From an uncultured Actinomycetes bacterium (GTDB lineage: Bacteria > Actinomycetota > UBA4738 > HRBIN12), in the NCBI GenBank assembly GCA_963704885.1, contig CAVPIB010000007.1, positions 201,975-265,974 of the forward strand: a stretch of 64,000 bases of DNA, read 5' to 3'. A model generated the notes under the pieces. The model was not told the origin of the DNA, searched no databases, and saw nothing but the letters and a program-made list of their open reading frames with translations. Position 1 is the stretch's first letter, and each line of letters begins with the position of its first letter. Shown one piece after another: positions 786 through 21,836 of the stretch. A program made the position numbers and the translations under genes.

Positions 786-1313
786 ATGGGTACCGAACAC
801 GACGCATTCCTGCGAGCCACGATGGGTTGTATGGACCTGGTCTACAACATCGCCAGGCGCATGGTCTTCTCGGCCGAGGATGCTGAGGACCTGGTGCAGG
901 AGACCTATCTGGCGGCCTTCCGCGCCTGGGAGGACGAGCGCCGTCCGGACAAGGTGGAGCCGTGGATGGCGACGATCTGCCTGAATCTAGGGCGGTCTCT
1001 CTATCGGCGGCGTGCTCGTCGGCCCCAGGAGGTGCCCCTGGAAGCTCGCCTGCTGGTGTTGCCCGACCAGGCCGACCCGGAGCGCGAGGCGCTGGCGTCG
1101 CTCGATCGCGACGCGCTGCACAGAGCGATGTGGCAGCTCCCCGAGGAGCAGTGCACCGCGCTCACCCTGGTGGACCTCGGAGGTCTCAGCACGGCCGAGG
1201 CCGCGTCGGTGATGGCGACGCCCCGGGGAACCGTGCTCTCGCGCCTGCACCGAGGGCGCCGGGCCCTCGCGCTGCTATTGGCTGACGAAGTACCTGACCG
1301 GGAGGTGACGTGA
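786..1313 (+). CDS. ECF (sigma-70 family, group IV) RNA polymerase sigma factor
   Basis: 175 aa. Region 2 motif DAEDLVQETYLAAFRAW and region 4 HTH LSTAEAASVMATPRGTVLSRLHRGRRAL. GGAGG Shine-Dalgarno upstream of the ATG. Confidence 0.9.
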   Translation: MGTEHDAFLRATMGCMDLVYNIARRMVFSAEDAEDLVQETYLAAFRAWEDERRPDKVEPWMATICLNLGRSLYRRRARRPQEVPLEARLLVLPDQADPEREALASLDRDALHRAMWQLPEEQCTALTLVDLGGLSTAEAASVMATPRGTVLSRLHRGRRALALLLADEVPDREVT

Positions 1314-18951: not shown

Positions 18952-19398
18952 CTACGCGATCCGGATCTCACCGCGCATGCCGTATGCATAGTGGCCCGGC
19001 AGATGACATCCGAAGATGAGTCCGCCGACCTGTTCGGGGAACGGATAGGTCGTGACGACCGTCTCCCCGGCCGCGATCGAGATCTCCCCGGGCCTCGGCG
19101 TGTGGTGAGCCTCACTCCCGGTCTCGTGGACCTGCTGCATGTACTCGTCGCCTACGACGAATTCGTGGTCGATGGGATCGGCGTTCTCCACCACGAACCG
19201 GATCGTCTGGCCCGGTTCGACGTCGATCTCCTGCGGCTCGAAGAGGGAGAAGTGGATCCGGATCTGGATCGTGCGAGTAGGAGCCGAGGCTGTCGATCGC
19301 TCTAGCCAACCCGACGCGAGCGCCGCGGTGGCTCCGACGAGTAGGAGTGCCAGGATGAGCACACCGATCCCCGCCGTGCGCGTGCCGCTGGTTCTCAT
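18952..19398 (-). CDS. cupredoxin (type 1 blue copper, plastocyanin/azurin-like) secreted protein
   Basis: Internal Met start (MRTSGTRTAGIGVLILALLLVGA signal peptide). Copper ligands H (DPIDHEF) and C..H..M (FGCHLPGHYAYGM). Four-bp overlap with the upstream lipoprotein gene. Confidence 0.8.
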   Translation of the reverse strand: MRTSGTRTAGIGVLILALLLVGATAALASGWLERSTASAPTRTIQIRIHFSLFEPQEIDVEPGQTIRFVVENADPIDHEFVVGDEYMQQVHETGSEAHHTPRPGEISIAAGETVVTTYPFPEQVGGLIFGCHLPGHYAYGMRGEIRIA

Positions 19399-20489
19399 CG
19401 TGCCGTTGCGTGCGACGTGGAACGACGGCTGGTCAAGATCCCCACGCCGCCCAGCACCACCACGGACGCCAGTGCGACCCAAAGGATCGGCCACAGCGAC
19501 GCGTTCGAGATCGGCAGGTGCGATGGTCGCAGCCCCGCCGCCGCCGGGCTCGGCTGGCCGAACCCGCTCGCGTCCACGGCGAGGTCGTGGGTGAGCGTAC
19601 CGGCGGTGGCGTTGACGTTGATCTTGGTCAGCCACATCTGATCGGTGGGCATCCACTTCATGCCGCGATCCGAACGCAGATCGGCGAGCAGCGATGTCGA
19701 AGCGGGCTCGCTCACCTCCTGGATCAAGCCGCGCTGGTCCGGGTCACCGTTGGGACGAACGGCCAAGGGAAGGGTGGCCGGGCGAACGTCGGTCAGCAGG
19801 TAGACGTCGGCCTGAACCAGCTCGGCTTCTTGACGTCCAAGCGCCAAGATCCGCAGAGGGACCCAGGGGTTCGGCGTGGGGATCACCACGTGGACCGGCG
19901 TGCCCTGCCCCTGCTGGACACCTTGCTCGTTCGCGCGGCCCACGTCGAACTTCACTGCCATGAAGATCGGACTGCGTTGCGCGTAGAACTCCAGCACCTC
20001 TGGAGCATCCGGTGGCAGGAAGAAGCCGTGATCGCTCGCCCAGGTCCCCACGGCGACCGCGCCACCCTCCAAGACCGTGATGTCGAGCGCGTCGATCTGA
20101 GTCTCCAGGAGCACCGTCGCGGAGTCGGCGGCTCCGGCTTCCGCCGCCAGGGCGAAGGTCCGTTGTTCAGGAGGTTGTGTCTCGAGGATCAAGCGCTGCA
20201 GGGTCCAGTCGCCGCCTTTGATCACCTTGGTTGGCACGCCAGGCAGGGGAACGATCGACCCGACCTCGGTGGCATCCACGCCCGCGAACTCGAACGAAGT
20301 CACGTAGTGCTCGACCCCCGCGTGGTAGGCGGCGAGGGTCGTGGTGCGGACAAGGTTGACGGTTCCGTTCGGGGTCACCAAGCCTCCACACGCGAGCGCG
20401 CTCGCCGCGGGAACAACTACGGCGAGCGAGACGGTTGCGGCGAAGATGGTCCTGCGGGCGAGGCGGCGATGGGCCTTGCGGTGGGCCAT
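19395..20489 (-). CDS. lipoprotein with C-terminal TM anchor, hypothetical; its 5' end lies in a tandem duplication
   Basis: MAHRKAHRRLARRTIFAATVSLAVVVPAASALACGG (lipobox ALAC) and a C-terminal TM helix LWPILWVALASVVVLGGVGIL. A second in-frame copy of the start and signal peptide lies 183 nt upstream, at 20672. Confidence 0.7.
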   Translation of the reverse strand: MAHRKAHRRLARRTIFAATVSLAVVVPAASALACGGLVTPNGTVNLVRTTTLAAYHAGVEHYVTSFEFAGVDATEVGSIVPLPGVPTKVIKGGDWTLQRLILETQPPEQRTFALAAEAGAADSATVLLETQIDALDITVLEGGAVAVGTWASDHGFFLPPDAPEVLEFYAQRSPIFMAVKFDVGRANEQGVQQGQGTPVHVVIPTPNPWVPLRILALGRQEAELVQADVYLLTDVRPATLPLAVRPNGDPDQRGLIQEVSEPASTSLLADLRSDRGMKWMPTDQMWLTKINVNATAGTLTHDLAVDASGFGQPSPAAAGLRPSHLPISNASLWPILWVALASVVVLGGVGILTSRRSTSHATAR

Positions 20490-20722
20490 GGGGGGCTCCT
20501 CCTTCGCGAGATCGCGGTTGGACGGAAGAACCCGAGCCTCGGTTCCCTCGTTCGGAGTCACCAGGCCTCCACACGCGAGCGCGCTCGCCGCGGGAACGAA
20601 CACGGCGAGCGAGACGGTTGCGGCGAAGATCGTCCTGCGGGCGAGGCGGCGATGAGCCTTGCGGTGGGCCATGGGGCTCCTCCTTCGCGAGATCGCGGTT
20701 GGACGGAAGAACCCGAGCCTCG
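20361..20722. repeat. about 181-bp tandem direct duplication (2 copies, about 95% identical) spanning the Shine-Dalgarno, start codon and signal-peptide coding region of the lipoprotein gene
   Basis: Copy 1 (20361-20540) and copy 2 (20541-20722) each contain GGAGGAGCCCC-ATG-GCCCACCGCAAGGC... on the minus strand. Confidence 0.8.
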
Positions 20723-20729
20723 GTTCCCT

Positions 20730-21836
20730 TTAGGCGGAAGGACCTGCCGGCGCCGGCGCCGCTACGTCCGCCGGGTAGGCGATGCCGGCCCGCTCGGGCC
20801 AGCCGATCGACAGCCGCTCGCCTGGAGCCCGTGGCTCCCGCAGTCGCAGTCGGCAGGATCCGATAGTGGTTGAGGTCAACACGTCGAAGTGCGAGCCGAA
20901 GAACGAACAGGTCTCCACGGAGCCCGTGAGCGCTCCTTCGCCATCGGCTCGGATCTCCAATTCCTCGGGGCGTAGAAGCACTTGCGCTCCGGCTCCGGGT
21001 CGTGCTCCGGCGTCGAGCGCTCTGAACCGTCGTCCTGCCACTTCCACCTCCACGTTGCCCTCACCGGCGGATATGACGGTCGCCGGGAAGAACGAGCCGG
21101 CACCGATGAATCGCGCGGTGAACAACGTCGCGGGCGAACGGTAGATGGTTTGCGGGTCGGCCATCTGTTCCAAGCGGCCCTGGTTCATCACGCCGACAAG
21201 CTGAGAGATGCTTAGGGCCTCGTCCTGGTCATGCGTCACGAACACGAAGGTAGTCCCGAGCTCCTGATGGATCCGGAGCAGCTCCTCTCGGAGCGCGAAC
21301 CGAACGTTGCGGTCGAGCGCGCTGAGCGGCTCGTCCAAGAGCAACACGCGAGGACGGTTGATCAACGCACGCGCGACCGCCACCCGCTGCGCCTGCCCGC
21401 CCGAGAGCTCCGACGGGTAGCGTGCGCCCAATCCCTCCAGTCCTACTAGCTGAAGCATGTCGGCCACGCGCTGCGAACGCTCCGCCGCAGATGGTCGCGA
21501 GTTCTTCGACTGAGTGGTCAAACCGAACCCGACGTTCTCGGTGATCGTCATGTGGGGGAAGAGTGCGTAGTGCTGGAACACCATGTTGAAGGGACGGCGC
21601 TCGGGCGGCCTCCGTGTGATGTCGGTCCCGTCGGTGAGGACCAGCCCACTATCCGGCGACTCCAGCCCAGCGACGATCCGCAGAAGCGTCGTCTTCCCAC
21701 ACCCGCTCGGCCCGAGCAGGCTGAAGAACGAGCCGGCCGGGATATCCAGATCGAGCGCGTGCAGCGCCACCACATCGCCGAACCGCTTCGACACCCCTTC
21801 GATCGAGATAGCGCCCTTAGGGCCGGCGCCCGTCAT
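20730..21836 (-). CDS. potA: ABC transporter ATP-binding protein, spermidine/putrescine importer PotA-like
   Basis: Walker A GPSGCGKTT, LSGGQ signature, Walker B LLLDEPLSALD, and a C-terminal TOBE-like domain. ATGA overlap with the permease gene. Confidence 0.9.
   Translation of the reverse strand: MTGAGPKGAISIEGVSKRFGDVVALHALDLDIPAGSFFSLLGPSGCGKTTLLRIVAGLESPDSGLVLTDGTDITRRPPERRPFNMVFQHYALFPHMTITENVGFGLTTQSKNSRPSAAERSQRVADMLQLVGLEGLGARYPSELSGGQAQRVAVARALINRPRVLLLDEPLSALDRNVRFALREELLRIHQELGTTFVFVTHDQDEALSISQLVGVMNQGRLEQMADPQTIYRSPATLFTARFIGAGSFFPATVISAGEGNVEVEVAGRRFRALDAGARPGAGAQVLLRPEELEIRADGEGALTGSVETCSFFGSHFDVLTSTTIGSCRLRLREPRAPGERLSIGWPERAGIAYPADVAAPAPAGPSA

Follow-up and report, generated by a model that had tools for sequence, protein, structure and literature searches.

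A probable tandem duplication of a predicted promoter, start codon and signal-peptide module at the head of a DUF2330-cupredoxin operon in an uncultured actinomycete

In a 64,000-nucleotide (nt) stretch of DNA from an uncultured Actinomycetes bacterium (contig CAVPIB010000007.1; hereafter the window, in which position 1 is the first letter), the minus-strand gene for a DUF2330 protein is preceded by a second, nearly identical copy of its own beginning, including the predicted promoter, the 5′ untranslated region (5′-UTR), the Shine-Dalgarno (SD) sequence, the start codon, and the signal peptide. It is probable, in our assessment, that the arrangement is a genuine, lineage-specific, in-frame tandem duplication (~183 nt) in which the DUF2330-cupredoxin operon gained a second full expression module, which would provide two tandem promoters, with the normal protein made from the ATG at 20489. 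The duplication belongs to a familiar type of event (a short tandem duplication with a promoter), is found in a single genome, and is most likely real but ordinary. It is unusual in two respects: the duplicated unit is an entire cassette for expression and export, with the reading frame kept, and the copies diverge in a codon-aware manner.

Anatomy of the repeat and the ancestral start

Tandem Repeats Finder gave an array with a score of 666 (2.0 copies of a 183-nt period, 95% matches) at 20366-20729; no other array in the whole 64-kb window has a score of at least 80. The array was resolved by a repeat search into a 128-nt block, repeated at a spacing of 183 nt with 95% identity, and a 57-nt block, repeated at a spacing of 181 nt with 100% identity. 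The copies are adjacent, lie head to tail, and are similar far above chance, as befits a genomic tandem duplication. An initial annotation of the window had described a 181-bp duplication at 20361-20722 with about 95% identity; the repeat and its identity are real, but these coordinates are off by 5-7 nt, and the gene lies on the minus strand.

Repeat searches and alignment defined the boundaries of the two units, both on the minus strand. Copy A, the upstream unit (20549-20729, 181 nt), comprises the predicted promoter and 5′-UTR, the SD and ATG, and the codons for the signal peptide and for 8 residues at the start of the mature protein. Copy B, the downstream unit (20366-20548, 183 nt), contains the same module and runs on into the rest of the gene. 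The difference in length is a CC indel in the cytosine run between the SD and the ATG, which reads GGAGGAG-CCCC-ATG in copy A and GGAGGAG-CCCCCC-ATG in copy B. Within each copy, the leader preceding the ATG is 57-59 nt long, and the duplicated coding part amounts to 41 codons plus 1 nt (a 123-nt coding part was compared), not to the 39-codon signal-peptide/lipobox region first proposed. The first 8 mature residues in each copy include the family-invariant Cys-Gly-Gly.

The SD sequence (GAAGGAGGAG) is located at 20677-20686 in copy A, where it is followed by CCCC and the upstream start codon (ATG_A, 20670-20672), and at 20496-20505 in copy B, where it is followed by CCCCCC and the downstream start codon (ATG_B, 20487-20489). 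Comparison of homologues and copies, together with signal-peptide analysis, placed the signal peptides in codons 1-34 of each copy: signal peptide A is encoded at 20571-20672, its last codon being that for the Cys of ASALAC, and signal peptide B at 20388-20489, ending with the family-invariant Cys. A perfect 14-nt palindrome, GCGAGCGCGCTCGC, is present in each signal-peptide coding copy (20392-20405 and 20575-20588; codons for AASALA), and is a possible hotspot for slippage or secondary structure.

A distance of 183 nt separates the two ATG codons (20672 and 20489), which keeps them in the same frame; therefore, the upstream ATG opens an in-frame open reading frame (ORF) of 425 amino acids (aa) at 19395-20672. 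In order, this ORF encodes signal peptide A, 20 residues translated from the promoter and UTR of copy B (EGTEARVLPSNRDLAKEEPP), signal peptide B, and the protein, so that the earlier expectation of two consecutive signal peptides upon translation from the upstream ATG was borne out, both by the ORF itself and by signal-peptide analysis. Whether the upstream ORF shares the frame of the gene depends on the length of the copy-B cytosine run. The run between SD and ATG (20490-20495 in copy B, 20673-20676 in copy A, and 88-92 in the relative L021) contains 4 C in copy A, 5 in L021, and 6 in copy B and in the related loci L001-L004.

The ancestral state was addressed by a survey in which 5.8 billion proteins were searched and the best 120 homologues were listed. 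The window's own 425-aa protein (P0001, the one member of its cluster, from one 275-kb contig) was the only one of the 120 listed to cover the full query. The other 119 are mostly 343-395 aa long, with two 479-aa entries extended at the C-terminus only, and a second N-terminal signal peptide was found in none of them; those inspected have one, starting MAHR... or similar. At the DNA level, the comparison with orthologous loci, which the initial annotation had proposed as a check, revealed a single unit at L001 (syntenic, with the ABC ATPase, DUF2330, and cupredoxin genes), at L002-L004, and at L021 (the closest relative, with 88% protein identity). Alignment of the window with L001 showed one clean gap of ~183 nt. 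Because the relatives' loci are single-unit, the gap in the L001 alignment has the length of the repeat unit, and the homologues have one signal peptide, the downstream module is identified as the ancestral gene start, and ATG_B as the start common to all homologues. The downstream start at 20489 had been taken as probably the functional one; it is indeed ancestral, but its sole use is not secure, since the promoter, SD, and ATG of copy A are intact and the three derived changes of this copy are synonymous (see below).

A conserved, predicted ECF-type promoter in each copy

The 57-59 nt immediately 5′ of the ATG were found to be nearly invariant in the alignment with L001-L004, though the coding sequences differ by ~15%. 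Sixteen further loci from GTDB genomes extended the promoter comparison to protein identities of 44-80% (44-89% for L001-L020 together). Two blocks are conserved, namely GG(G)AAC(C) and, after a gap of 17-18 nt, CGTC(C/G)AA, with exceptions in L020 (15 nt) and L008 (CATC); the arrangement AAC-N17/18-CGTC is present in 18 of the 20 loci, and L021 likewise has AAC-N17-CGTC. A GGAAC or AAC-containing -35 box occurs in both copies, throughout L001-L020, and in L021. The -10 box lies 32-39 nt before the ATG in L001-L020 (49 nt in L016) and likewise in L021, and the spacer between the two blocks is free in sequence and nearly constant in length. In the window, the predicted promoter A has its -35 box, GGGAACC, at 20722-20728 and its -10 box, CGTCCAA, at 20699-20705, with AAC-N17-CGTC spacing; the same boxes of the predicted promoter B are at 20541-20547 and 20518-20524 (all on the minus strand). 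Thirteen loci match a strict form of the pattern, each of them once and solely in front of the DUF2330 gene; in the window it occurs twice, both times within the copies, compared with 0.06 occurrences expected.

Promoters recognized by extracytoplasmic function (ECF) sigma factors have GGAAC at -35 and CGTC at -10 as their hallmarks (PMC3397946). Experimentally supported targets of Streptomyces coelicolor sigmaE include GGGAACC...-CGTCTT and GGGAACCTCGGCATGACCGTGTT-CGTCTC, with 16-17-nt spacers (PMC6767563), and the boxes of promoter A follow the format of such validated promoters (PMC6767563, PMC3397946). By these features, the leader in each copy is a complete predicted ECF-sigma-type promoter, GGGAACC-N17-CGTCCAA, followed by a ~25-nt 5′-UTR and a strong SD. 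The statement that the regulatory and initiation region is doubled can accordingly be sharpened: it is doubled, and the doubled region includes a complete conserved promoter, predicted to be of the ECF-sigma type, and 5′-UTR, more than the SD. The reading of the leader as a sigma-70 promoter or as an intrinsic terminator of the upstream ABC gene was dropped, neither having been found. The conserved, predicted ECF-type promoter of the DUF2330-cupredoxin operon has not been described before, and is a more useful result than the duplication itself.

The gene upstream of the operon varies, and the promoter block does not. The neighbour is an ABC ATPase gene in the window and in L001, and a VapC toxin gene in L002-L004. 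The promoter block is unchanged despite these different upstream genes; therefore, promoter and operon move as a cassette. In L002-L004, the operon lies directly downstream of a PhdYeFM/PIN (VapBC) toxin-antitoxin pair, in place of the ABC transporter.

A conserved leader could alternatively be a structured cis-regulatory RNA, such as a riboswitch, a thermosensor, or an SD-sequestering switch, that was duplicated as an RNA element and not as a promoter. The leader of the window does fold into an SD-sequestering helix (-30.6 kcal/mol, z = -2.4), but RNAalifold detected 0 conserved pairs among 20 orthologous leaders, and no Rfam match other than noise was obtained at E up to 10. The region between the boxes, free in sequence and nearly constant in length, is promoter-like rather than helix-like. 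The structured-RNA explanation was rejected on the absence of conserved pairs in the 20 orthologues and of an Rfam match, and is regarded as highly improbable.

A candidate for the sigma factor that would recognize this promoter was sought in the window. An ECF sigma gene (175 aa, 786-1313, plus strand) is followed by genes for an RsrA-like zinc anti-sigma (ZAS) factor (HxxxCxxC) and a weakly MerT-like membrane protein (gene block 786-2025). The sigma factor passes only the NCBIfam cut-off for the ECF superfamily, the nearest models being SigH, SigM, and SigE. Upstream of its gene (~729-762) is GGGAAT-N17-CGTCTTG, a SigR/H-like promoter of the autoregulatory type. The sigma/ZAS pair (786-1636) was considered as the cognate pair and set aside: because its own promoter is GGGAAT-type, SigH/R-like, and, despite a resemblance, differs from GGGAACC, this sigma factor is probably not the cognate factor of the DUF2330 operon.

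Divergence, origin and possible use of the two copies

The two copies differ by 7 substitutions, all within the 123-nt coding part (codons 6, 14, 24, 25, 37, and 39, with two changes, F/V, in codon 25), whereas 0 of 57 promoter/UTR positions differ. Nei-Gojobori analysis of A versus B gave Sd = 6 and Nd = 1, corresponding to dS ~0.20, dN ~0.011, and dN/dS ~0.06; between orthologues, dN/dS for the same 41 codons is ~0.5. The probability of at least 5 of 7 substitutions being synonymous at random is 0.02; for the observed 6 of 7, a hand binomial calculation with a synonymous-site fraction of 0.279 gives ~0.003. The absence of changes in the leader is significant against synonymous sites (Fisher P = 0.006), with a P of only 0.10 against the whole coding part. 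Polarisation with outgroups assigned to copy A the changes at codons 6, 14, and probably 39, each of which is synonymous, and to copy B those at codons 24, 25, and 37; the closest available relative is at dS ~0.45. Since the differences are biased toward synonymous changes, the leader is without changes, and the derived states are split between the copies, neither copy looks decaying, and the differences are not sequencing noise.

These data bear on the proposal that the duplication is real and the upstream copy is a silent, decaying relic, without relevant transcription or translation and without effect on expression. Against it, all conserved promoter positions are retained in copy A, as are the SD and the ATG, and none of the 57 promoter/UTR positions is substituted. 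The coding changes derived in this copy number three, each synonymous and at a third position, for which a hand calculation gives P ~0.02-0.04 under neutrality. The loss of 2 C from the SD-ATG spacer of copy A would fit decay, but the resulting 4-nt spacer is natural in the orthologue L007, and C-runs of 4, 5, or 6 occur among functional single-copy relatives. With all homologues managing with one module, and with a double-signal-peptide precursor being topologically awkward, the relic retains some appeal; we consider it unlikely.

The junction between the copies was examined for traces of their origin. Short tandem duplications of promoters and 5′ gene regions arise via replication slippage and via unequal or illegitimate recombination. 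At the internal junction, where CCGAACG is followed by AGGGAACC, there is no in-register microhomology beyond 1 nt. The heptamer GGAACCG, which corresponds to the -35 box, is also found at codons 41-43, because the lineage uses GGA for Gly42 where the relatives use GGC. It lies 3 nt off the register of the junction, and the unit expected from it would be 180 nt long, so that a clean microhomology origin via this heptamer was rejected; it may have facilitated the event by favouring misalignment. A recombination breakpoint was also looked for, by sliding identity to the syntenic L001, and no clear step was seen. A direct repeat of 181 nt should readily be lost via recombination or slippage, and a dS of 0.2 is high for one. 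Three possible origins can be named: an old duplication kept by selection, a recent one formed between diverged alleles (for example, by illegitimate recombination with DNA from a sibling strain), or a chimera.

The last of these corresponds to an assembly artefact: the genome would have one unit, and the second would stem from a chimeric read or from the joining end to end of two strain alleles of this single-copy region. Two co-existing alleles would show the same divergence pattern, with synonymous differences and an invariant leader; moreover, the protein is known from a single contig, the CC indel sits in a homopolymer, and frameshifted versions of the gene in related assemblies from the same data sources (P0039, P0044, and P0068) suggest that indel errors occur there. 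The junction argues in the opposite direction: with the 1 nt of in-register sequence shared across it and GGAACCG 3 nt off register, there is no shared k-mer, and therefore no k-mer overlap could make the join without reads containing it. The join is also clean and keeps the reading frame, the array is the only long tandem repeat in the 64 kb, and the ~183-nt gap in the L001 alignment is itself clean. The initial annotation had considered an artefact equally likely; in view of the 7 codon-aware differences, the junction without a collapsible k-mer, and the absence of any other such repeat in the window, we judge it improbable.

The frameshifted homologues deserve a separate comment. P0039, P0044 (479 aa), and P0068 (L004, 6001-7098) are close homologues from ENA assemblies, and their frameshifted C-termini run into the cupredoxin gene in another frame, which suggests either indel errors or real frameshifts in related assemblies. 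They bear on the trust that can be placed in homopolymer lengths from the same data source.

Several further observations weigh against a genuine duplication with two working promoters. A dS of ~0.2 means that an intrinsically unstable 181-nt direct repeat has persisted for a very long time, or else that the copies stem from two alleles that had diverged beforehand, and the copy-divergence statistics are based on only 7 substitutions. The duplication is known from a single contig of one strain; exact-protein look-ups with the 425-aa and 364-aa forms, P0001, and the cupredoxin matched no other indexed contig, and no second assembly of the strain was found. No cognate sigma factor was identified, the sole ECF sigma of the window (786-1313) lying 19 kb away behind a GGGAAT-type promoter of its own. 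Finally, an active upstream start could be harmful, because a precursor with two n-regions of charge +6 and two hydrophobic cores conflicts with the positive-inside rule. The junction and the leader were also sought in a scan of JGI metagenome contigs, with 0 matches, in a collection that likewise missed the leader of a known JGI-derived relative and is thus uninformative. The exact 25-nt leader pattern of that relative's contig, L002 (sample 3300037264), gave no match in the scan; because L002's own leader was missed, the negative result is not evidence of absence for the lineage.

If the duplication is genuine, as we consider probable, the following mechanism may be proposed. Promoter B, SD_B, and ATG_B (20489) represent the ancestral arrangement, and would be enough to produce the normal 364-aa precursor. 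Promoter A, located 181 nt upstream of promoter B and identical to it, would add a second site of initiation, and two tandem promoters under the same sigma factor would yield more operon transcription on induction. ATG_A, with the 4-nt spacer that occurs naturally in L007, would serve as a second good start site, giving rise to the 425-aa precursor with two signal peptides. Transcripts from promoter A would include the copy-B promoter spacer (GGGUUCUUCC), which is predicted to pair with SD_B and mask it (the fold of -30.6 kcal/mol and z = -2.4 mentioned above, which is a single-sequence fold). Such transcripts would favour the long form, and those from promoter B the normal form. The long form might either be processed at the second cleavage site, yielding the same mature protein, or be mis-inserted.

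It has also to be considered that both starts are used by design, and that purifying selection maintains both peptide copies and with them two isoforms. In the long one, signal peptide B would remain as a pro-region or as a membrane segment within the chain, so that this isoform would be anchored or located differently from the normal one. The frame is preserved, the h-region is hydrophobic enough for a transmembrane segment (Kyte-Doolittle 19-residue mean ~2.1), and the survival of an unstable repeat up to a dS of 0.2 speaks for selection. The dN/dS of 0.06 between the copies, set against ~0.5 between orthologues for the same 41 codons, points the same way, but this contrast reaches only P ~0.03 on 7 substitutions (hand calculation), and two diverged alleles as the source would explain the same statistics. 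The architecture is present in one genome only, and no precedent was found in the family; a selected two-isoform design is accordingly given a slim chance. A fuller version, in which the whole twin module is under selection, is itself rather unlikely: two identical ECF promoters and two translated, conserved signal peptides would produce a regulated mix of the normal and 425-aa forms; in the latter, signal peptide B would serve as a pro-segment or internal anchor, and the copy-B cytosine run would set the frame.

The operon and its relation to known systems

The ancestral form of the DUF2330 gene (19395-20489, minus strand), as delineated from ORFs, Pfam, and homologues, encodes 364 aa with an N-terminal signal peptide and a C-terminal transmembrane helix. 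The product belongs to DUF2330 (PF10092), with a score of 48.1 bits compared with a gathering threshold of 24.7 in the Pfam hidden Markov model search; a literature search found no paper mentioning DUF2330. The signal peptide has an n-region charge of +6 and a hydrophobic core with a mean Kyte-Doolittle value of ~2.1 (19-residue mean), and is directly followed by A-x-A-C-G-G-L, which is invariant in 36 aligned homologues. The assignment of the product as a lipoprotein, made in the initial annotation, is uncertain. A permissive PROSITE-style regular expression for the lipobox matches VVVPAASALAC (A-L-A-C), but the stricter Gram-positive G+LPP pattern fails (L at -2), and an alternative AxA (ASA) signal peptidase I site is located two residues upstream. 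A twin-arginine translocation (Tat) signal was rejected: the twin arginine varies among relatives, and no Tat-signal family was among the NCBIfam matches.

Downstream, the cupredoxin gene (148 aa, 18952-19398, minus strand), supported by domain matches and gene-pair comparison, has an ATG that overlaps the DUF2330 stop codon (ATGA), and the two genes are predicted to be translationally coupled. The pair is conserved in 19 of 20 related loci, and the remaining locus stops at a contig edge. Upstream, ORFs, domain matches, and locus comparison identified a gene for a PotA-like ATP-binding cassette (ABC) ATPase (20730-21833, minus strand), whose TAA stop codon abuts copy A.

The locus is of modest value in three respects. 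It is a natural case in which a cassette of promoter, ribosome-binding site, start, and signal peptide was copied in frame with both copies intact, and offers a simple system in which tandem arrangements of ECF promoters and of signal peptides could be studied. The DUF2330-cupredoxin pair is widespread and unstudied in uncultured Actinomycetota, and its promoter would, on sequence features, make the operon part of a regulon for envelope or extracytoplasmic stress; the promoter motif gives a handle for finding the remaining regulon and its sigma factor. For annotation, the locus is a warning: the longest ORF, deposited as a 425-aa protein, does not represent the protein in its ancestral form.

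Tandem repeats of promoters are known to raise expression, as exemplified by TR34 of Aspergillus fumigatus cyp51A. The present duplication resembles these in being head-to-tail, shorter than 200 nt, inclusive of the promoter, expected to increase transcription, and intrinsically reversible. It differs in that the unit reaches into the coding region, so that the ribosome-binding site, start, and signal peptide are duplicated in frame, and in that the copies are 5% diverged rather than identical, with no clean microhomology at the junction. Tandem signal peptides were reportedly engineered into Sec-exported proteins in work on the E. coli lipoprotein in the 1980s; a literature search on tandem signal peptides returned nothing directly usable. 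As in those constructs, two complete signal peptides would stand in series on one precursor, but the arrangement here is natural, and the second peptide has its own predicted promoter and ribosome-binding site, so that the normal precursor can be made independently.

Within the DUF2330 (PF10092) family, the protein is typical in its Pfam match, signal peptide, A-x-A-C-G-G-L motif, C-terminal transmembrane helix, and cupredoxin partner, and it is the only one among the 120 best matches with a duplicated N-terminal module. The promoter, judged by sequence features, is closest in format to actinobacterial sigmaE-like promoters, of which it is a putative member. It shares with the sigmaE regulon promoters of S. 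coelicolor (PMC6767563) the GGGAAC(C) -35 box, the CGTC -10 core, and a free spacer of 16-18 nt, as well as a position 10-200 nt from the start codon of an exported or membrane protein that it would drive. It is distinguished from them by a -10 box reading CGTCCAA rather than CGTCTT, by its host, an uncultured lineage of Actinomycetota, and by its occurrence twice in tandem.

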